From positions 1 through 57,377 of the forward strand of contig NIVC01004160.1 of NCBI GenBank assembly GCA_002269645.1: 57,377 nt of DNA, given 5' to 3'. Shown in pieces: positions 3,416 through 42,300 of the stretch; position 1 is the first letter of the stretch, and each line of letters begins with the position of its first letter. The stretch comes from Macrostomum lignano (Eukaryota). The translations under genes were made by a program, and so were the position numbers. Under the pieces are notes generated by a model. The model was not told the DNA's origin. It saw only the letters and a program-made list of their open reading frames with translations, and ran no database searches.

Positions 3416-5475
3416 TTACCGGCACATTCTCATGGTCATGTCCTTCTGCAATTAAGACCGCATATGTTTGTTTCGTTCAATTTACTGGATAGCAGGATAA
3501 GTGCAGATAGCTCCGCCTGTCAGTCAAACATGAGGACTCACCAACGGCTCCAGTTCCTTCTTGTCCACCAGAGCGAACTCGTTCACAAAGTAGAAAAAGT
3601 GCTTGTAGCAGGTATTCACGTGAGCTTCCTGAAATATAATTATTGTTGAAAGTTCAATAAAGTACTTTTTAAACGATGTCAAACGTGAGCACGGTGGTTT
3701 GTACGCAAGCACGCATCCACACGGAGTGTTCAACGGCCTTGACTTTCACACAGGCGGAAATCACACGACAAACCCCCAGGCCAATTGATGCGCACGAGGC
3801 CCAAATTAATGTGGCTGAGCTTTTAGGTAAAAGTGTCAACAGTTAACACAGTTAGTGAGGGAACGAACTGCCTTGGGTAGGGTTTGGGGAGCCACTCCCT
3901 AGTGTCAAGCAGCTTGGGATGGCCGGCACAACTTATGTCAATGAAGGCAACGCTTGATACCAGATGTCCGAAATTGAACGCCCGAGTACTCACGGCGCCA
4001 ACAGACACCAGGTGCTCAAAGTGGTGAATATAGACGTGAACAAAGACTCGAAATAAGCGAGTGAAAATCTTCTTAACGCTGGCCAAGTAGGTCTTGGGAA
4101 ACGGCCGGCTGGAGTCGGTGGGGAAAAGTTCCTCGTCGCTGATCTGCGTCTCAACCCAGTCCATGAGCAGGTGGATGTACTCCCTGGCAGGCAGGGAGGT
4201 CGGCTTCTTGTACTGGCCCTTGTCAGCCCACTGGTACTCGTACTTGGAGCCGCCGCTCATCTTGGGGCAGCTGACCTCCGTGCACTCCTCCGCCACTGTG
4301 CCGTAGATCAGATTCACCCGGTTGTAGAAGTCCACAGCGTGCACTGCAAGCCAATCGTTGAGATCCTCGCCCTGCGGCAGCTGCACCGCAGTTTTCAGAT
4401 CGATGCCGGCGCTGAGAGACGCCATAGCGTTCTTGTGCAGCTGGTGGCGAAGTGTGCCCTCCTTGTACTTCTTCTGGGGCTTGAAGGTCTGTTGGTTTTA
4501 TTTGGAATTGTTGCAGCTGTATTTGGTTTTGCATGCTGATGAGAGATAGACATGAACAGAAGTATCAAATTAGAACTTAAACAATAAAAATAATTTATTA
4601 TCCTCATGCTATCTATATAAACCATAGATAGAAGATCTAATGTAGATGTTAATATTATTAATTAGAATGAAGTAATTTGAACTTTTTAAAAATAAGTGTA
4701 CAAATTTCTACATTTAAATTGAAGCTTCTAATATAGTCTTTTGAAGTTTTAGAAAATAGGTTTTATAAACATGCTATATTGGAACCAATTTATACACATG
4801 CATGTTATTCAAAATTTACAAAAATCAATGACAAAATATAAGTAGCTTAACAAATCTAAAATAATAGTAATACTGATGACAATATTGCACTTTATATAGA
4901 TATAGTTATAGTATTGATTGGTTATAGTGCTACTTTACTTAGTTTTATATCACTATACTATATCAATAATATATCAATACGTTATTAAGCTCAGTCTACT
5001 TCTGCAAAAATCTTGTTTCTAAAGTTAAAAATTTTAATAAAAATCTAGATCAATAAAGCTAAGCTAAGCAAGTTTATATCTACAAATCTTACACAGTTAA
5101 CCAGTTAAAGGCTGCATAAAGGTAAAAAGCATATCAGTATCAATGCATTGTCTAAAAACTCAGACTTGGTAAAAAGTCTATTTGAGGTAATTTAAATATA
5201 AAATAGCATGGCCATGCTTAAGACAAATTTTTCAGCCTACATGTACTTTTGTTAAAAGATACTTGACACAAATAGTTGAAATTTATAAATGAAGCTGATC
5301 ATGCCAATTCGTTAAGATCAAGCAAATTAAATAAAATTAATTGCACACTGCATCTGACTGAAAGATGGTATAAATATAATTAATTTAAAAAATTCAAGAA
5401 AGCCATGAGCAAAACAGCATTCAATTTTCATACCTTTTCTCGATTAAAGAACTCTTTAAATCCTCCAAATGACAT
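3416..5475 (-). CDS. MOB3: MOB kinase activator 3 (MOB3-like), 4 coding exons, 217 aa
   Basis: Exons 5475-5434 ([14 protein letters not shown]), 4488-3994 (TFKPQKK...[29 protein letters not shown]...[12 protein letters not shown]...GA), 3628-3542 ([18 protein letters not shown]...ELEPL) and 3445-3416 (KDMTMRMCR*). All introns are GT-AG, phase 0. Motifs WLAVH.VDF.NR.NLIYGT and MSGG.KYEY.W are typical of the MOB3 subgroup. Confidence 0.93.
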
Positions 5476-30300: not shown

Positions 30301-33300
30301 TGCCTTGACGATGCAGGACAGCCCTGCACAGTGGTTGGCCTACTTGACAATCAGCGGTTGCAGGTGCCTCTGTGTCACACCAACGGAACGATTGACTGTA
30401 AGTAATGGTACTTCAAGGTGATGTGTTCCTTATTACCCGACTTTCGATAATCAAGGAACAATCACTTCTAGCTCAACAGCTAGGCAACCCAGTAAGTCAA
30501 ACGAAGGTATTCAATTACCTTTAATCCGGATTTGAATTTCTTGAGTAGTTCTCGCTAGATTGTCAGTAGATCTCGTAGTCACTTGATTTTCGTTGTCTGG
30601 TCCGATTCTTCTTTCTTCTAAGTTCCGGCCGGATTCTTCGCTCAGGACCAATGAGCTCGTAGCAACAATGGGTCCCTGCGCCAAACTGCGGTCTAAATTA
30701 AGCCTCCTTCTTCTAGCAGTGCCTCTATGCACTCTAGGTATAGCTCCGGAAACCACTGATAGTCCTCTAAGATCTATCAGGGGCAGTCCTTCTGTAGACT
30801 GCAACCAATGGAGTCTAAACAGACTCAAGAGTCTCAACAGACTCAAATAGACTCAAGTCTCAATAGACTTGAGCGAGACGTCTCTAACACAACGGCGCAA
30901 ATAAGGAAGGCTTACCGCAACAACTCGACCGAGTCTCGATTGACTTGGTATATCAGGAAGTCCTCCTAAGGCTTCCTCTTCGGAGCGCTCCTCTTCCGTG
31001 GGGAGAATGGCTCCGGTACCGCTTCAGATCGCTTGTATTTATAGACAAGTTTTTGATCCAAAATAGTATCATGACAATTCACGTGTTGCGCTAAAAGGGG
31101 AAAATGGCTCATGGCGTATTATTCTGGTAACATCTTTTTCTGGTAGCGTGATTCATTCAAAGCTTAGGCGCACATGCGTGTACTTACTTACTTATAGTAG
31201 TATTATACGATTATCTTCTTTTTTCCTTTTTTAACGGGAGGTAGAACACTCTACAAAATCTCCCTTTTTTACGAAAAAACTCGTCCCGAGTTTTAACAAT
31301 AAAATTCTGTGGTGATCAGTTAATATAGGAAATAAACAATTGATTTTGTGCGCGTCTAGTGAAGCGAGGGTTTGGTCAAAACTCTAAAAACTTTTCAGTA
31401 CATATTGCGGTCAAAACTCGAATATCGCGTAGACATCAAGTGGCATCAGGTTTGATCCGACACCACTTTCGAAACGTGCAGTCTCGCGGCATACTATTAC
31501 ATAAGGGGCATCCTATAACGCCCCTACTAGCGGTTTGCTTCAAACAGTGCATGCAAATAAAATGTTGGTGGTTACAATATTGAAACGTGCGCCAAGAATA
31601 ACAATAGGCACATTGTCGCAAACTATCTCTACAGAGGGGACAATTCTGCCATGGCTGAATATAATGTGAATCGCTTAAACATTGTCCGCAAACTTTATGT
31701 TCGTTGATGCAAATAGTCGGTGGCTTGACAGCCAAGTCATCAGTTAAACATATCGGGCAGTCATATAGCTGCTGAGGCTGGGGCGCCTGTTTTGACAGTG
31801 CGTTGCCCATAATTGTCGTCAATTTGTCGCTGTCTTTGTGTCGCTCGGATTAGTCGCCTTTTACGACAAGCTTGCGAAGCTGTAGTGCTATTCTTTATCC
31901 CGGTCACTACACGGGGTTGTTCTCTAAACTCTAGCGTGGTCGTAGGTTGTAGCCATGTGGCTGGCTCACATCTGTCGTTTGAGTCTCCTCGTGCTTCGTC
32001 GCGATGTGGCGGTTCGTTGAACGCGTGCGATCAGCGTTGTCTAATGTCGGTAGAAACGTCGCGGTGTCAGTGTTGATCTTCTTTAGTCGATGAATGTGCA
32101 CGTAGAATTGATGCTGATGTGGATCTTGCACATTAGCCAGGCGTGCCGTTGTTGGTGACGTTAGTTGGACCACTCGATAGGGTCCTTTATACTTCTGTGC
32201 ATGTTTATGCGTCTGCTGCGGCGGGTAGTGTAGGTAAACGATGTCGCCGGCCGTCAGGGTTGTCGATCTCGCGTCGTTGCCGGTGGTCAGAGCCACCTGG
32301 TTGTCAATGTTGTGCTTGGCGATCTTCCATGCGAGGTGTAGTTGCGTGACGAATTTCTGAATGGAAGTCGGTACTTCCACGTACTGCGATGGTAGCAATT
32401 GCTGTGCGAGCAGATTCGGCGGTTGGAAGTCTCGTCCAAACATTAGGAAGAATGGCGTATTGTCCGTTGATCGATGAATAGCGCTGTTGTAGGCCATTGT
32501 TACAGATTGCAGGTAGATGATCCAGTCTTCCGGCTGTTGGTGCGCGAAATGTGTAATCATCTCGTGCAGGTTGCGGTGAAACCGTTCAACCATGTTTGCC
32601 TTCGGATTGTAGGTCGATGTGTAGATCTGCGTAATGTTGAGAATCCTTACGACTTGCTGAAACAGTTGCGATGTAAACTGCGATCCGTTGTCCGATGTGA
32701 GGTTCTTCGGCGTGCCGTACTTGCAAATGATTTCGTTGAAGAAACTCATTGCCACTGTCTGAGCTGTGATGTCCGGTATCGGTATGGCGATAGCAAACTT
32801 CGAGAAGATATCCAAGGCGGTTAGAATGTAGGTGTAGGCGATGCCCTGGAGACAGCTCGGTGGCAGTGGTCCGGTGATGTCGATGCTTAGACAGTCCATT
32901 GTAGTCGACTTCGGAATGGACTGTAGCTGCGGTTTCTGTCGTCGTCCTGTCTTTGATGCAGCACATGAATGGCAGTTGTTGCAATACTGCTTGATGTCGC
33001 CGTACATAGTTGGCCAAAAGTAGTATTGTTCCACTCTCGCGATGGTCTTTGCGGCCGACAGGTGTCCAGCGAGTGGGTTGTCGTGCAGCTCGTTGAGAAT
33101 TGCTTGCCGAAACGAATATGGTACGTAGATCTTGGGTTTATTGTCGCTCATCCAGTAGAGCCGTGACTTATTGATTGTTAGGTGTTGTCGTTGCTTGCGT
33201 AGGAACTTTCGTTCCATGGGGCTAAGTTTGATGTTCTTGTCGTCGTCTTTAACCGCTTGGTAGAAGTTGTCGCGCTCGGTTTCATCCACCAACTCCTTGA

Positions 33301-36300
33301 TGTTAGGGATTGGATGAATGGCGTTGACTTCATAGGCTCTTGACAGGGCGTCCGCGGCTTTGTTGGTAATTCCTGGTTTGTAGACGAGTTTGTAGTTGTA
33401 ATCCTGGATCTTGAGTGTCATCCTGATGAGTCGGTTGTTGGTCTGTCCTTTTGTAGTTACGACGTAGGTCAATGGTGCATGATCCGTGCGTACTATCGTC
33501 TGTATTGGAGAACCATAGATGTAGTAATGAAACTGTCGCAGGGCGAACAAGACTCCTAGTAGCTCTCGTTCCGTAGCTGACCACTTTGTCTCATTTGGTT
33601 TGAGTGCTCGACTGACGTAAGCAATAGGTCGTTCCTTCTTGTCCTCGGTTTCCTGTAGTAGGACTGCTCCGAGTCCCGTTCCTGAGGCGTCTGTCTCGAT
33701 GATGAAGAGCTTGTCGAAGTCCGGATGCTGTAGCAGTGCGTCTGATGTCAGCTGTCGTTTGATTTCGTCGAAACTTTCCTGTTGTCTCTGTGTCCAGTTG
33801 TCTTGCTTCCATTTGTCGAACTTGAGCAGGTCGTACAGTGGCTTTGCTGTCTTTGCGAAGTTAGGTAAGAACTTCCTGAAGTATTGCGCAAGTCCAAGGA
33901 ATGATTGGACCTTCGTTATACTGGTTGGCGTAGGAAACTTCTTCACCTTTTCCACGTTGTCTGGGTCCGGTGAGATTCCTTTGGCTGTCACCTGATGTCC
34001 CAGGTAACGCACGTTGTCTCGGAAGAATTTGCATTTAGTTGGTTGTAGCTTCAGACCTTGACGTTGTATAAGCGCGAGGGCCTTCTCCGTCGCTTCATAG
34101 AGTCGTTCGAAGTCTTCTCCGTGGGCCAAGATGTCGTCAACATAGTGCAACAGGTTCGTGCATCCTGCAGCATGTATGCTGTTAGTCGGCTCATCGTTGC
34201 TGGGCTGTTGCTGAGTCCCATCGGCGATCGATTGTACTCGTATACTTGTCCATTGTAGGTTTTGAAAGCCGTGTACTGTCGTGACTCTTTCTCGATTTCA
34301 ATTTGCCAAAATCCATGACGTAGGTCGAACACCGTGAACAATTTTGCCGTGTTGAGCTTTGCTAGTAGTTCGGAGATCTTCGGTAGGCTTTGCTGATCCG
34401 TCGGTATGTACTTGTTCAACAGTCTGAAGTCGCATACGAGTCGTCTTTCGTTTGTCTCCTTCTTCTGTACCAGTAGGCACGGTGAGGAGTAAGCCGAAAT
34501 AGCTTTGCTGATGATGCCGTGCTTTAGCATTTTATCGATGATTTCGTCAAAGTGTTGTTGCAGATGCTTGGCGATCGGGTACGGCTTGCACTGAATTGGT
34601 TCCGTGTGCGGCAGAAGTTTGATTTCCTGTTTGATGTCCTTGGCTCGTCCGATGTCGTAATTATGATGGCAGAAGGCTTCGTTGTACTTCCACAACAGCT
34701 GTCGAACTTTCCTCTTTTGCTGTTCCGTAATCGGGCTGTCATCCAAATTGATCTTCTTTTGAAATTCTTCCTCTGTTAGTCGTGGAGTCGCTTGTTCAAT
34801 CAGCATAACCGATGCTTGGGTGTTGAGATGACCGATGCACATTCCTTGTCGTAGATGAACCGTTTCTGTGTTCGGGTTGCAGATTTGTACTGGCAGTTGC
34901 TTATCCTTTGCAACCAGCACTAGTGCCGTAGGCATCATGATTTGATGTTTTGCCGTGACTCTCCTGTGTGGATCAAATATCATTGCTTCATCTGCCGCGC
35001 TGGTCGTTTTCGCTCTGACCCAGCATGCGCTTTCAGGCTGGATAATGACATCTTGCTGCAGAGTTACTTTCGGTAGTACTCGAATCTGGTTGATCAGCGG
35101 TTGCTCCACCGTGTCGATCCTAAACGTTTGCTTGTTGAAGTCGAAGGTCAATGGTAGTTGAAGCTGCTTGAACGTGTCGATTCCAACGATGACGTCTTGG
35201 TTTGGTAGTCTGTCGATGATGTACGTCGGGACCGTCAGCTGTTTATTAGCAATTTTCAAGTCGATATCTGCTTTTCCTAGGATGTTGAGTGAATGTCCTC
35301 CTGCTCCTGCAACTGCGATTGCTGCTGGTCGTACCGCGAGTCGTAGCTTGTTGCATAATTGTTGCGAGATGACTGTGATCGAGCTGCCTGAATCCAGTAG
35401 TGCTCGACATGGCAAGTTGTTGACAATGACCTGAGCCATTGCTTTGCCAATCTCGGCGTGTAGCGTACAGACGTAGTTTTCCGGCCATTTTGGCTCGTGC
35501 TGTTCTGCTTGATAGTTGGGTGGTTGTATCCTTGGTGCCGTTGGTGTTGTCGGAATCGATGGATATAGCCGCGTTGCTAGTGTCGGTTGCCCTTGAACCT
35601 CACAATGTGCAGTTTCTGTTAGTTCTAAACTGTTGTCGCTTCCCGTTGTCGTTCTTTGCATTATGGCATTCACTGTCTTCTTAGCTCTTGGACAAGTTTG
35701 ACTGAAGCACCGTACGATCGATGAAATGATGAAGATTGCCGTGACAATCCACACAATGCAAGCACCGTAGAAGATGAATCCTTGATAGAGACTGCCTCTT
35801 CCATTGAGCAGCTCCCAGAAGCTATTTGTCCAAAATGATTTGATGGCGCTGTCCATTGAAACAAGGACGGGAAATCTTCCTGTCCCGGTTCCTTTGTCCT
35901 TTCTTGTGAACAGCTGGTGAATCATCTTGCGTTGGGTGATGAACGCTTGCAAGAAGTCGTTGATCGTCCATCCTGGTGTTATCTCGTCAAGTTGGATATC
36001 GGCGAATGGCGTATACTTCGTTCTGTTGAATCGGATTTTCAAATCCTCCATGTCGTAGTTTTCGTCGACGATTACTTCCGGTTCTGTGACGTTTGCTGTC
36101 GTTCCAGTTGTTTTGATGACGTGTAGTGCATTGTCCAGTTGATAGTAGTTTGCTGCCGTGGTGCAAGGTCTCGGTATTGCGGTGCCAACGATGATGTTGT
36201 GTACCGTGTCCAAGAATCCCTGAATTCGTTTTCCTTCGTAGAACGCTTCAATCCTTGGCTTGTCGTAGCAGGTTGTTGACGTGTTCGACGGCAAGATGTT

Positions 36301-39300
36301 AAAGTGCTGTATCGGCGTGCACTTGTATATTAACAGATGCTCGTATATTGGAACTGCCAAAACGTTCGTCATTCCGGTGATTTTACGAAAAGTCATCGTA
36401 GGGTTGACATAGTAGTTTTGTCTGGCATAATTTAAGTTGATTGCGTGCATTTTGCAAGTTAGCTGGACCAGTGTTCGATGCAAGTGGTTTAACTGGTTGT
36501 GTAGATTGTGATCCAAAGCCGTTATCTTTGCTGACAGTAGTCGGTTTGACACCAGTTTGGGACGTTCGATGTCACGTCGTCGTCTGTTCTGTTGTTCCTG
36601 CTGTTGATACGTTCCGTTGATGATCGCCAGAAAGGTTTGTTTGTCGTCATCTTTTACGTAGACTGGTATCTCTTGTTCCGAGATGAATAGTGTCTTGTCT
36701 GTATCCTTGCATTTCAGTTTTTGCTCGACTGGTTTCTTTTGAAACGTCAGTGCCAAGTCTCCTGACTTTGCCAAAAACGTATTTGACAGTAGTCCTCCTT
36801 CAACTGTGTGATACTTTTGAAGCTTGCAGTCAATTTCCGGCTCAACTTCCCACGCGAAGAAGTATTGTCGTGACTTAGATGGTTCTTCATATCGTGAGTC
36901 GCCTCTGCGTATAATTTGCCATCGATAGTCTTGATGATATGTTGGACTCAACGGTAAGCTGTATAGTTCCTCATTCCGCAGTATCGGCGTTGGACACCAT
37001 CCTTTGCTGTATCGGCAGTCGCTTAATTGCAGTTGTAGCGACTCCATTTTTTCAAAAGGATTGTGATAGAATGGAATATTCCTGATTAGGTAACTGTTTC
37101 GTGTCATGTAGTTAGTCCATGCTTCCGAAAAGTGTACATATCGTCCGTTTGCTGAGTTCTTCGTTCGGTAAAGTTGTGCCTCCCCACTTTCTCATCCGGT
37201 TCTAGCTGACCATCCTTTGAGAACAGTGTTTGGTTCCATTGTAGACATTCAGCGTGCGACACATGTAGTTCGTGTTGCCAAAATCGAATTCTGTTCCACT
37301 GTCCTCGCCAAACTTTTTCCACTAGGTGCTTGTCTCTAAAGCACACTATTCCGAGTTGTCGATGCTTCTTGATGTTAGCTTTGTAGAGATCAATTGTGAT
37401 CTTCTTTGGCTTCGTCTGGTTTGTCTTGAAGTAGCTGCATTTGATGTCGGTTGGTATCTTGTAGATCATTGGTTGGATATGCGCATCCGTTGGACATATC
37501 ATTGGTTTCTCCATTGCCGTTGCTTTGGCGACTACTGCTATCAGTAGTATCACGATGATCCAGAGCAGCCAGTTTTTCCACTTCTTGGACCTTGCCGTTG
37601 TCTTTGCTGGCATTGGCTGCGATTGCCATTCGTTATCCTCCATGTCCGCATCGTATTCTTTCGGTTGTTCCATTGGCTGATTCAGGCGGAAGGCTTCTGA
37701 TTTGCTTTGCTCTTTGGTTATTTCAGTATCTTCGTCTGTAGCTTCTTCCGATGTTTCCGTTGTTTCACTCCATTGCGTTTGGTATCTTTTCTCTGCCTTG
37801 TAGTCGACCGTTTGAATATAGGCTTCACCATTTCGTTTGTATCGGATCTCGTAGCATTCGTCGCTGTCGGAACTCGGCTTTTCTTTCATTTGTTCTTTTT
37901 CCATTTCTTCATCTTTCCATTGTATTTCGTAGCCTTGATCGCTGTCGGAACTTAGATTTTCCGCTCTCAGTTCTTCCTGCATTCCTTCTTCGGCTCGGTA
38001 TCCATTCGTATCATCATGCACTTCGCAGTCGTGATCGTTGCCGTAACTTATACATTCTTCTTCTTCCTTCATTTCTTTGTCTTTCGTGCTTGTTTTTTCG
38101 TCATCCACTGTTGTCGATTCATAGTTGTTTTCTCTGCCAGTCTTCATCTTTTCTTCGTTGCCGGTGTCGCTCTCCGTCTCCTCCCTTTTTTTGTGATTTA
38201 CTTTCTTCCTGTTTTCTCTGCTGTCTCCGGTGGTCTCTTTTAATTTGATCATTTCGGTTTCATTCGCCTCTTCTGTGTTGTCAGTGTTGTCCTCGTGCGT
38301 CGTCTTCTTTTCGATCAAGCTGATGTCAAGTTCCGGGACTGTGAAGTCCATTTCCAAGTCGTCAATTGTGAACACTTGCTGTTCCTGCTGCTCATTTTCC
38401 GGTGTGTACGTGATGGCATTCGCGTATCGTGGCATTGCTTGCGTTGGCTGTCTTTGTGCGTACCTGGCATTGCGTGGCCTGTAGCCATTATTTCTGAAGC
38501 GGCCTTCGTTTCCGAAGCGGCCATCATTTCCGGAGCGGTCATTATTTCCGAAGCGTCTATCATTTCCGACGCGTCTTATGCTTTGTTGTTGGCGATTTTG
38601 ATATTGCTGCCATGGTTTCTGCGGCTTCTGATTGTTGAATATCTGTCGCGGCTTGTCGTATCTTGTTGACCAATGAGGACAATTAATCTGATAATGTCCT
38701 TCTTGTCCGCAGTAGTAACATCTGGCTGAGGCTTGTTCATTTCGTCTTTTTTGTTCGGCGATAGCAGCTGTCTGGTGCTGCATTAACTTGTTTAGTTGCT
38801 GCGTCAGTTTCTGCACTTCATTGTTGCCTGTCGTCATTAATGGGGCACTGGCTTCCCACTGCATTCCGCACCGCAAAAGGTCTTCTTCGGTTTCGATATT
38901 TTCACGCAAAAGTCTATCCCGAAGTGACGGCTGTGCGTTGTTTATTACGTGCAGGATGAGGTTTTGTTCGCGATCCATCAATCGTTGTCTTTCTCTGGCG
39001 GCCAATTCTGCCGCTCCCAGTGGCGGTTGGTCCGCAGCTTGCAGCGGTGGCTGATGCAGTGCCTTAATTATCTGGCGGATATCGTCCACAAAGGCGAGGA
39101 AGGATTCTGTTGCTTGCATCCTTCTGTTATGCAACTTGTGCAGCAGCACTGATCTGTTTGTGCCGCAACGGTTGAAATGCGCGCGCAGTTGAATGATTAG
39201 TGCTGGATAATTTTGCTGTGTTGCTGCATCCAGCTTGCCGTAAATTTCTCGCGCAGTACCTTGGAGAAGAGGTGGCAGCAGCTGTGCCTTCTCTGGATTT

Positions 39301-42300
39301 TGTAGGTTGTATTCCCTACATACCAGGTCAAAGTGGTCGACAAATGTGTTAAAATCTTTCTCCATCGAGAAGGTACCGACCGTTTCTTTGATGTCTCTGT
39401 GTACCGTTGGATTGCGCCGCGCCATGTTGTTGATAGGATAGAACGGTAGTTCAAGATCTGGATCGATTTGTAACGGATCGTCCAGTGTGGTGTTTGCCTC
39501 GGAATAAACCTCGACTGTAACGAATTGTCTTGTGGTGTCGATTTGTTATTCGCTGGCCTCGGATGCGGTGTGGCTTGCTGCCACTGGTTGTCCTCAAATG
39601 AACTTGTTCTGTTCGCTTGCTGATTTCGCACTTATGCGGCGTCCCGCAAAGTGTATCTTCAAGTTGAAGTGGGCTTTGTCTTCTTGTTTTGCAAAGTCTT
39701 TTTCTCTTCTTTGACTCTCTCTCTTTTGTCAATTAACTCCGCTCTCCACGAAGTTTCAATTAATTTCGGTTTTGTTTTTGTGCCGGCAAAATGTTTCAGT
39801 TATTTTTTGTTTGTTTTGCGTCGACGATTCTTTTATTTTCGGTTTGTTTTCAGTGTACCGATGAATTTAATTTCGGTTTTATTTTAACTCACACTTGCTC
39901 GAGCTCGTTAAAACAAAATTTAACACGCGTGCTCAAACTGTACTCAAATTTGACAGGTGCTCAAACCTGTACACCAAAATTTACTCGAGTTTCAAAACGT
40001 AACGGACTTAAAAAGTGTTAACTCTAACACGTGCGCGCAAAATTAATGAAGTCGCTCTGTCGTCACTTTACAATAGCTTGATCAGGGCTATTGCTCAAAG
40101 TTTGAGTAGTGCCGAGAGGGCGAGATCACCAATTGATGTGTTCCTTATTACCCGACTTTCGATAATCAAGGAACAATCACTTCTAGCTCAGCAGCTAGGC
40201 AACCCAGTAAGTCAACAGAAGGTATTCAATTACCTTGAGTCCTTTGGAGATCTCTCGGAGTAGTTCTCGATTGTCTTCAGTTGCTCTCGTATAGTCACTT
40301 CTGACTTTCGTTTGTAGAGCGGGTCCGATTCTTCTTTCTTCTTCAAATAGTTCCGGCCGGATTCTGTCGCTCGGACCAATGGGAAGCTTCCGAATTAACA
40401 GTGGGATCCCTGCGCCAAACTGCGGTCTAAATTAAGCCTCCTTCTTCTAGCAGTGCCTCTATGCACTCTAGGTATAGCTCCGGAAACCACTGATAGTCCT
40501 CTAAGATCTATCAGGGGCAGTCCTTCTGTAGACTGCAACCAATGGAGTCTAAACAGACTCAAGAGTCTCAACAGACTCAAATAGACTCAAGTCTCAATAG
40601 ACTTGAGCGAGACGTCTCTAACACAACGGCGCAAATAAGGAAGGCTTACCGCAACAACTCGACCGAGTCTCGATTGACTTGGTATATCAGGAAGTCCTCC
40701 TAAGGCTTCCTCTTCGGAGCGCTCCTCTTCCGTGGGGAGAATGGCTCCGGTACCGCTTCAGATCGCTTGTATTTATAGACAAGTTTTTGATCCAAAATAG
40801 TATCATGACAATTCACGTGTTGCGCTAAAAGGGGAAAATGGCTCATGGCGTATTATTCTGGTAACATCTTTTTCTGGTAGCGTGATTCATTCAAAGCTTA
40901 GGCGCACATGCGTGTACTTACTTACTTATAGTAGTATTATACGATTATCTTCTTTTTTCCTTTTTTAACGGGAGGTAGAACACTCTACAAGGGGTAACAG
41001 AAGAAAATGGATTTACGAAAAAATTATTTTTACACTCTTAGGGGACTTTGATAAGGTCGACGGCAGCAAGATCTGGGACAATGCCGCTGAGATAGCGCTG
41101 AAGCGGTTGAACATCCCTCCAGGCGTGTTCAAACCTGAGAACTGCTCAATCGTCACTTCGGCCGCGGTGTCAAGAAAGAACTGTCCGCATTTCACTGTGC
41201 CTCCGCATCTTCCTGAGGGCGCCAAGTGCAGAATTAGCGACGACTGTCTGGAAATGGATTGCTGTGTCGACCTGCAGCTGCTATCGTTTAAAAAGCAATT
41301 CCACGTCTGGCTCGAGATCGACCCGTGCGGTCTGCGGTTCGAAACTGGCTTTGAAAACTGGAAGTTCAACATTAGTCTTCTTAATCATATCGGTGAGACT
41401 ATTCATATGACGATTTGCGACAGAACTGTGTGCTCAAAAAGGCTTAAACCAACTGTCTAAAAATTCATAGGTCGCAGCTACAAGGAGAAGATTGGCAACT
41501 CGCTGTCAGTCAATTTCGAATATGGCCGAGCATCCGACGGTCAGCTGTTGGCCACGCTGTCAGTAGAGTTTTGCTACGACTTCCAGTGTACATTCGACAT
41601 CAAGCTGCTTGATATGGCAGTGATACCCATTCCAGCCTGCGGAGCATCAGGACTCGTGTGGCCTGAATGTGAGCCGTATTGTAGTTCCTTTGTACTTTGA
41701 AGCTATTACTTATCAGGAATTTGATAATAACTGAATTTGTAATTTCAGTAAACGCGGCCGGTCATGCCAAATCTGTCGAAGAGGCCACAAGAGGTCTTAT
41801 CGCTAACCGGCTGAAGCTGTCCCCGAACTTCCTGGCGGATCGTCAATGCGTAGTGAACGAAATTTTGAGCAGAAATGTGACTTGCTCACACGCCAATGTG
41901 CCTGCCTTGCCAGAATTCACAACTTGTGGCCTGGCACCCGGCTGCCTAGGAGTTGAGTGCTGCCAGCTAGTGGACTACAAGCTGCTCAATAGGAGCTTCT
42001 CCACCTGGATTCAGTTCGATCCTTGTACCTACACGTATTCAGTTGGCTTTGAGCGCTGGTATCTGAATGGCACTCTCATGAATTTTACTGGATGGAATGA
42101 AGAGCAGCAGCAGAAGATCGGCGACCAGCTCACCCTGCGATTCAAGGTGGCAAAAGCGCAACAACTGCAAAGCTTCATAGTAGGCATGTCGCTTGAGTAC
42201 TGCGATGCCAACGATTGCAATCGAGTAGCGAATATTCTTCACGATCAGGAGTTCCCGGTTCCCGTCTGTTTGGACGGCTCCAGGCTTGAATGGTCGAATG

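Follow-up and report, generated by a model that had tools for sequence, protein, structure and literature searches.

The window analysed here, a contig of 57,377 nt from the flatworm Macrostomum lignano (NIVC01004160.1, assembly GCA_002269645.1), carries on its reverse strand a long terminal repeat (LTR) retrotransposon of 10,571 nt. An open reading frame (ORF) with two RING-type zinc fingers lies behind the integrase (IN) region of this element, and the original prediction, made from the letters alone, took it to be either a matrix or budding factor like the arenavirus Z protein or a membrane-anchored E3 ubiquitin ligase. The ORF is real, but sister copies reveal it to be a truncated version of the leading gene in a set of two to three related RING accessory genes (the cassette; genes A, B and, where present, C), and it is not an arenavirus-style matrix protein. 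The explanation of the whole that we favour, with moderate confidence, is a virus-style accessory RING E3 cassette acting on host factors, with the window copy as a recombined remnant.

The window ORF is a shortened copy of a longer gene

The basic description of the ORF held up: it is a frame of 124 codons on the element strand (31810-31436) with the start MGNALSK, located between the IN stop (31931) and the polypurine tract (PPT; 31270-31256). Finger 2 has the predicted spacing C-x2-C-x8-C-x3-H-x2-C-x2-C-x11-C-x2-C, and finger 1 reads C-x2-C-x12-C-x3-H-x2-C-x2-C-x12-C-x2-C-R. Gag begins MARR, without a glycine for myristoylation, and a motif scan confirmed that the ORF contains neither PTAP nor PPxY; YxxL is also absent from its sequence. 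The ORF had been called intact, and its frame is indeed open for 124 codons, but in sister copies the frame extends to 144 or 222 codons, and a second RING-RING gene is present as well. Its position was also said to be that normally taken by env, whereas the env of this element was found between gag and pol.

A search of the M. lignano genome with the ORF gave at least 145 matches (150 of 212 candidates were scored). Among the best 30 loci, 16 were of the 124-codon type (one with a stop at 113, two starting Met-Ser), seven were of a 144-codon type (one with a stop at 81) and seven were long; five of these seven have 222 codons, encoding two RINGs and then a helical domain of ~115 aa (the C-domain). 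Long copies of gene A are followed by gene B, which encodes a 210-aa paralogue of the same layout that lacks the glycine at position 2 (Gly2). Between the window ORF and a long copy, codons 1-105 show five synonymous and three non-synonymous changes and codons 106-123 are saturated; in its tail, the ORF is 69-72% identical to the beginning of the C-domain as found in other sub-families, after which the PPT region follows. The low divergence of codons 1-105, the foreign tail and the run into the PPT therefore identify the window copy as a recombinant with a deletion of ~1.05 kb. Judged from these comparisons, the window ORF has kept both RINGs and lost the helical domain together with gene B.

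Among 22 short copies, 19 different 3′ flanks were counted, which marks these copies as independent insertions. M. lignano is reported, in the accessible part of PMC12801592, to be a hidden allotetraploid with a redundant assembly, so our copy counts are overstated. One sub-family is dead: its gene A contains an internal stop and has lost cysteines, and gene B is missing. It accounted for 21 matches among those scored, and four of its loci were examined. Since copies with a shortened or dead cassette have amplified, the cassette is dispensable in cis. As for the short ORF, it is probably either a passenger or a remnant of partial function.

A contrary reading is that the 124-aa RING-only form is itself selected, as a myristoylated RING pair serving as an E2 sink, a dominant negative or a heterodimer partner of the long proteins. 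This form is the commonest among close copies (16 of 30) with both fingers whole, its deletion junction recurs in contigs of three of four sequencing runs, the fourth having loose letters that agree with it, and variants shared among short copies lean synonymous. Against this, the end point varies among short copies (113, 124, 144 and 81 codons), Gly2 is changed to Ser in two copies and Cys89 is lost in two, and the dead form has spread equally well. In addition, the private variants of the 22 short copies comprise five synonymous and 19 non-synonymous changes, which matches the neutral expectation of 1 to 3.7. The shared variants may predate the truncation, and we regard selection of the short form as quite unlikely.

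The cassette is conserved in three clades and evolves under constraint

Two further clades of the element were recognised, in which Gag is about 70%, Env 61-66%, reverse transcriptase (RT) 82-84% and IN 70-76% identical to the window copy. The cassette occupies the same place in all three clades, immediately after IN (or after the point where IN has been deleted) and before the 3′ LTR; clades 1 (that of the window copy) and 3 carry genes A and B, and clade 2 carries A, B and C. A tree of 21 rows (17 cassette proteins from open representatives and four outside hits; the tool warned that long branches meet) split A types from B/C types with support of 100/99, and each group includes proteins from outside the M. 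lignano genome. The outside relatives P0005-P0007 were retrieved by a HMMER library search with E values of 1e-36 to 1e-32, and for the two tested, no counterpart in the M. lignano genome exceeded 42% and 30% identity, respectively. P0005 is an A type without Gly2, and the UniRef protein containing gene B carries the name Macrostomum lignano.

Ratios of non-synonymous to synonymous substitution (dN/dS, Nei-Gojobori method) were 0.13-0.30 for gene A, 0.10-0.37 for its C-domain alone and 0.14-0.32 for the B/C genes, compared with 0.04-0.06 for IN; for gene A and for the B/C genes these ranges cover six of seven pairs, one pair being saturated in each case. By this measure the cassette is under purifying selection and evolves several times faster than IN. 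The number of genomic matches and a dN/dS well below 1 mark the ORF as more than a chance frame. Decay of the ORF in sister copies, raised at the outset as grounds for refutation, was seen in part, in the dead sub-family with its 21 matches. The proposed survey of conservation revealed purifying selection in the cassette family but a neutral ratio in the private variants of short copies.

No host source of the cassette was found, as host SIAH and a host RING/B-box cluster align with it over RING1 only (profile scores 20-31 bits). This resemblance is what could be said for a recently captured host gene fragment without any function in the element, which the original prediction had also considered. 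However, of the 15 outlying loci that were checked, 14 are beside an element LTR or pol, or have no match, while the fifteenth, an orphan, is a fragment in decay; moreover, synonymous sites are saturated while frames stay open, and relatives exist outside the genome. Recent capture is accordingly the least probable of the readings discussed here, and barely credible. As separate observations, the orphan (L139, G000:C356:255095-255379; also on C1588) is a frame-broken gene A fragment outside any element context, and loci L124-L128 (G000:C210, C1491 and C2920) are host tandem RING plus B-box-like genes whose RING scores slightly above host SIAH against the cassette profile.

Wider searches added little. 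Word-indexed protein searches, with the single protein (93 candidates) or with an alignment (1305 candidates), found nothing, and scans of metagenome and viral contigs with the finger-2 alignment revealed no relative. No description of the cassette was found in the literature on RING or E3 accessory ORFs in LTR elements, a search that lay outside Repbase, Dfam and the earlier M. lignano LTR classification. RING rows in the portion of the expression supplement of PMC12801592 that was available could not be tied to cassette ORFs.

Cassette proteins resemble RING E3 ligases

In an alignment of 20 cassette proteins (eight A-type and 12 B/C-type), all eight ligands of both fingers are invariant or nearly so. 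RING1 ends in C-x2-C-R with an Arg (Arg61) that is invariant in all 20 rows, whereas no row has an Arg after RING2; the position after the last RING Cys is that of the E3 linchpin, as given in the accessible text of PMC12326332. The C-x3-H spacing of RING1 is Sina-like, Pfam Sina_RING matches 16 of the 20 members (E<=0.05) and several B-type loci exceed its cut-off in the genome search. Profile matches in PDB are RING E3s, with a best E value of 7e-6.

A structure model of the 222-aa protein had a mean predicted local distance difference test score (pLDDT) of 87.8 and a predicted template modelling score (pTM) of 0.78, and its RING1 superposed on E3 RINGs with Z scores of 4.1-4.5 and root-mean-square deviations (rmsd) of 2.0-3.4 over 47-53 residues. 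Modelled alone, the C-domain is all-helical (pLDDT 83.4). Its best fold matches, the TAP transporter and the N-domain of F-ATPase delta/OSCP, reached Z scores of 6.4-6.8 (rmsd 2.9-3.9, 83-91 residues), below the level that is meaningful for helical bundles; a search of viral models gave no Foldseek match under E 0.38 and the Atlas gave no hit, which shows neither novelty nor absence. Prediction of an A:B complex scored 0.00, which is uninformative on A:B pairing. Gly2 is present in four of the eight A-type rows and in none of the 12 B/C-type rows, and is also absent from clades 2 and 3 and from P0005; within clade 1, two short copies have Ser2, and a 73%-identical sub-family retains the start in the form MGNAQSR. 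From sequence and models, the cassette proteins are most likely RING E3-like, with E3 activity predicted for RING1. Of the alternatives in the original prediction, the invariant linchpin Arg, the Sina-type and RING-E3 fold matches and the purifying selection support the RING E3 accessory protein, which in this clade would probably be myristoylated.

Late-domain motifs lie in the polyprotein, and the likeness to arenavirus Z does not extend to the family

The other alternative, an arenavirus Z-like matrix or budding protein giving the anchor that Gag lacks, draws on the near-ideal myristoylation start, kept in the 73%-identical sub-family, and on finger 2, which when searched alone gave a Z chain as its best PDB hit at E 0.04 and a second Z at 0.38 (12 hits). 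The resemblance faded with broader profiles: the A-type finger-2 profile placed Z 13th of 20 (E 5.3), with TRIM32 first at 3e-4, and with the all-family profile Z was not among the best 60 of 75. Z proteins are of 90-99 aa with one RING and late domains, according to the available text of PMC3509680, whereas the window ORF has two RINGs and owes its small size to truncation of a 222-aa parent. Late motifs were absent from 19 of the 20 cassette proteins scanned and from every A type.

In the polyprotein, by contrast, LYPSI, PTAP and PPNY are clustered within 19 residues behind the Env anchor (35568-35512). Of the 22 distinct linkers compared, all contain YPxI, 21 contain PTAP and 18 contain PPxY, and all three classes came together in one of 100,000 linker shuffles. 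The cluster is largely conserved in the three clades, but in clades 2 and 3 PPxY sits in the Gag tail instead, as seen in the three tails displayed. Like all Gags, those of clades 2 and 3 start MARRNP, and in these clades neither Gag nor gene A has Gly2. As Gag is in frame with the first hydrophobic segment (TM1) and the late motifs are in the polyprotein, a separate matrix protein would not be needed for membrane targeting or for recruiting the ESCRT machinery. Against a Z-like identity stand the family profile, the two RINGs, the 222-aa parent, the lack of a late motif, the absence of Gly2 from clades 2 and 3, and the anchors and late motifs of the polyprotein; we consider it very improbable.

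Signals and contigs consistent with subgenomic expression

A candidate splice donor recurs about 110-125 nt after the TATA box in the LTRs of all three clades, and public gene model P0004 joins the same donors to gene B twice. A conserved non-coding block between IN and gene A is 94% identical to clade 3, although the flanking proteins are 73% and 40% identical, and is a candidate splice, re-initiation, packaging or crossover site. The original prediction had proposed looking for an acceptor at 31930-31811; a candidate, YACAG/CT, does lie within this block, and in 11 of 12 loci gene A has the same motif ahead of it; the locus without it is the orphan. Of 15 downstream ORFs, 12 have an AG no more than two bases from the ATG.

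Four sequencing runs, each from a different study and guessed to be RNA (the guess was RNA for 14 of 20 sequencing sets), supplied contigs that were aligned to one long copy. The deletion junction of the window type was bridged in contigs of three runs. Gene B was covered in run X3 and by one contig of 1,271 nt in X4, with no cover in X1 and little in X8. One X4 contig leaves the element exactly at donor 1 and resumes with the letters after an AG in U5, a jump that fits spliced RNA. Taken together, these signals suggest that the cassette may be expressed from subgenomic mRNAs, made by splicing from the LTR or by spliced-leader (SL) trans-splicing.

A proposed role for the cassette

In the explanation that we favour, a single Gag-Env-Pol polyprotein would supply its own membrane anchors and, through the motifs observed in it, the ESCRT-type late functions. 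Two to three paralogous RING1-RING2-helical genes would be made from subgenomic mRNAs, the observed LTR donors being spliced, or a spliced leader trans-spliced, to AG/ATG sites. RING1 would bind E2~ubiquitin with RING2 as a structural partner, and the fast-evolving helical domain would select the substrate, so that the proteins could act as E3 ligases against host factors, most plausibly defence or silencing proteins. Clade 1 would have gained a myristoylation start on gene A and with it membrane placement, while the window copy would have lost the probable substrate-binding domain; such copies still spread.

Several points weigh against this account. E3 activity, binding and substrates are read from sequence or models, the target is a guess, and the RINGs of the window ORF score under the curated Pfam cut-offs. 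The shared variants of the 22 short copies comprise nine synonymous and six non-synonymous changes (neutral 1 to 3.7), a lean that could mean that the short form is still selected. A short cassette is found in four of the seven clade 1 loci with a fully open Env-Pol frame; cassette loss is thus not tied to env decay, and these loci show no link of the cassette to infection. Finally, three C-type ORFs lack the AG near their ATG, and among the joints displayed no contig joint entered an A or B acceptor, the contigs being only guessed to be RNA.

The main competing function is that the cassette serves the element itself, either by ubiquitinating the polyprotein tail or Gag for ESCRT release or by transactivating the LTR. 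The late motifs in the polyprotein tail would fit, as ubiquitin is tied to late-domain budding (PMC3509680, accessible text), as would the predicted membrane targeting of gene A in clade 1 and the Pol-less derivatives in which Gag and part of env persist and both A and B genes are open. Yet copies without a working cassette have amplified, Gly2 is missing in two of the three clades, and host targets better fit two to three paralogues that evolve several times faster than IN; a role for the element alone thus seems unlikely. A bolder version of our preferred account, which we offer tentatively and hold to be doubtful though possible, is that, independently of vertebrate viruses, a Ty3/gypsy lineage of invertebrates evolved into a complex retrovirus. 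Such an element would combine a single membrane-spanning Gag-Env-Pol polyprotein with retrovirus-type late domains on the cytosolic side of Env, an expanding array of RING E3s with a substrate domain of no known family, operon-like expression through SL trans-splicing or LTR splicing, degradation of flatworm antiviral or PIWI-interacting RNA (piRNA)-pathway proteins, and cassette-less copies riding in trans.

The host element and its copies

From its sequence, the element is an env-carrying Gag-Env-Pol Ty3/gypsy errantivirus of a family that has already been catalogued: LTRs, primer-binding site (PBS), PPT and the order protease-RT-RNase H-IN are all present. Its insertion site, as read from the sequence, is a short intron of a large host gene, where it lies in antisense orientation. 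The Env region, between Gag and protease, has two hydrophobic anchors and an RRRR site, and PF24664 (the Monjiviricetes fusion family) matched all three Env regions at E values of 1e-5 to 5.5e-5, below the cut-off. Flatworm elements with GAG-ENV-POL order and a gB-type Env, including Mlig_errantivirus_2, are described by Chary and Hayashi in the accessible part of PMC13524379, where the Env type is given as ENV_HSV. A strict pattern scan of the LTR found no heat-shock element.

The unbroken Gag-Env-Pol frame is 2,498 codons and was fully open from Env to Pol in eight of 43 loci examined; in the window copy it is broken in env and in RT, and no more than one further copy shares the env break. 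Many of the frame breaks occur in a single copy, and a break present in the reference copy used for read mapping is missing from all four sequencing runs, so assembly errors inflate the apparent decay. The two window LTRs are identical over 582 nt and strongly different in U5, and both U5 types occur among sister copies, which suggests, from the sequence, recombination or gene conversion. The element flanks share CCT; a 4-base target duplication would carry one mismatch. The features are collected in Table 1.

Table 1. Positions of element and cassette features in the window
Feature	Position	Strand	Basis
5′ LTR, 856 nt, TG...CA	40134..40989	-	94% to 3′ LTR; first 582 nt identical, later part diverged
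TATA box in 5′ LTR	40766..40777	-	motif position; function inferred
Candidate splice donor 1 (GCG/GTAAG), about 120 nt after TATA box	40643..40655	-	same place in LTRs of three clades; homologous site used by one X4 contig
Candidate splice donor 2 (AAG/GTAAT), U5	40228..40238	-	homologous site ends exon of public gene model P0004
PBS	40120..40131	-	same 12-mer as given for Mlig_errantivirus_2
Gag (CCHC knuckle) into signal/TM1 and Env start; frame stops here in window copy	37104..39425	-	frames, Pfam
Hydrophobic segment TM1/signal, in frame with Gag	37527..37571	-	hydrophobicity
Env ectodomain, protease, RT start; window copy frame broken inside RT	34051..37107	-	weak PF24664 match, frames
RRRR furin-type site in Env	36585-36574	-	sequence
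Second Env hydrophobic anchor (TM2)	35778-35749	-	hydrophobicity
Late-domain motif cluster (LYPSI, PTAP, PPNY) in linker from Env TM2 to protease	35512..35568	-	motif scan, shuffles
RNase H end and IN	31931..33421	-	frames, Pfam
Conserved non-coding block after IN stop and before ORF A, with two inverted repeats resembling hairpins	31852..31915	-	clade 3: 94% identity (71 nt); clade 2: 78% (46 nt)
Candidate acceptor YACAG/CT inside conserved block	31887-31878	-	sequence
ORF A, shortened form, 124 aa (parent form 222 aa)	31436..31810	-	open frame and sister-copy comparison
N-myristoylation-type start MGNALSK (clade 1 only)	31790..31810	-	sequence, alignment
RING1 (C3HC4, Sina-like C-x3-H, ending C-P-L-C-R)	31628..31759	-	Pfam, alignment, structure
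RING2 (compact, without linchpin Arg)	31499..31612	-	profile searches, alignment
Remnant of helical C-domain coding region from another sub-family (69-72% to other long forms), ending before PPT	31340..31495	-	sister-copy comparison
PPT	31256..31270	-	sequence
3′ LTR, 837 nt	30419..31255	-	LTR comparison

Some loci are of interest in their own right. L041/L042, L092-L096 and L142 are Pol-less derivatives of clade 3; L041/L042 and L092-L096 retain part of env and both cassette genes with no visible break, with Gag seen in L042, and L142 retains a piece of Gag. Dense, nested same-strand copies and cassette fragments of several sub-families occur in G000 on C2121:1-70000 (+), C1130:1-52000 (-), C87:229000-275000 (-), C272 and C4009; by analogy with flamenco, we presume that such clusters could be uni-strand loci resembling piRNA clusters. 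Within the window, a very large host gene with many Cys-rich repeats (C..C.G.ECC...DPC...FE.W) extends over about 6700-55700 (+) and has the element in one short intron; an 821-aa piece of it had no Pfam match and a 414-aa piece weakly matched peptidase M23. A host gene of the MOB1/phocein family (Pfam) lies at 3823-4425 (-).

Comparison with known systems

Mlig_errantivirus_2 (PMC13524379) agrees with the window element in species, gene order, PBS 12-mer, LTR length (~860 nt) and total length (~10.6 kb), and 16 copies are given there. RING and accessory ORFs appear neither in the main text nor in the accessible supplements of that paper; ubiquitin, myristoyl, late domain and PTAP are absent from the main text, and C3HC4 and MGNALSK from those supplements. 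The family itself is therefore known, while the cassette and the late motifs are undescribed in what is available of that source.

Among the closest precedents is the planarian gypsy element Burro/GYPSM1, which, as far as the available text of PMC6431247 goes, shares an env in frame between gag and pol, domains linked to ubiquitination or apoptosis, and accessory ORFs. Burro exceeds 30 kb, and its polyprotein holds most of its BIR, BCL2, MATH/TRAF, ankyrin and SUMO-like domains, whereas the element described here is 10.6-11.7 kb long and encodes separate RING-RING-helical genes after IN, with no BIR, BCL2, MATH or ankyrin domain found by Pfam in the window frames. The other close precedent, the ORF3s of bdelloid rotifer elements, also lie between pol and the 3′ LTR and are typically expressed from spliced messages, but those in the accessible text of PMC5408684 are single genes for GDSL esterases, DEDDy nucleases, or transmembrane or coiled-coil proteins, with no RING among them. 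A further captured accessory enzyme appears in the available part of PMC9289625.

Among cellular proteins, SINA/SIAH shares the C-x3-H spacing and terminal C-P-x-C-R of RING1, but has zinc fingers and a TRAF-like domain where cassette proteins have a second RING and a helical domain. The myristoylated ligase ZNRF2 (PMC4889327, accessible text) also combines Gly2 with a RING, but has no tandem RINGs and no relation beyond one RING. Look-alikes of the cassette proteins in fold and language-model searches are RING proteins of giant viruses and herpesviruses, none significant. Arenavirus Z shares small size, a Gly2 start and a compact RING with the window ORF, but has one RING and late domains against two RINGs and none. 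Duplicated accessory genes before the 3′ LTR, expressed on subgenomic RNAs, are familiar from walleye dermal sarcoma virus (orf A/B) and foamy viruses (tas/bel2). The placement of the cassette is the same as in these complex retroviruses, but they are Retroviridae and their proteins are unrelated.

The analogy with Z is not the main point of interest in this element. To our knowledge, few element-encoded counter-defence proteins are known for animal LTR retrotransposons, although they are well known for retroviruses and DNA viruses. The element has been active recently, and in M. lignano transgenesis has been applied to LTR elements (PMC12801592, accessible part). The late motifs behind the Env anchor offer a possible route by which GAG-ENV-POL elements without a myristoylated Gag could reach the membrane and bud, and if the cassette targets the host, its substrates would name flatworm factors that restrict env-carrying elements.

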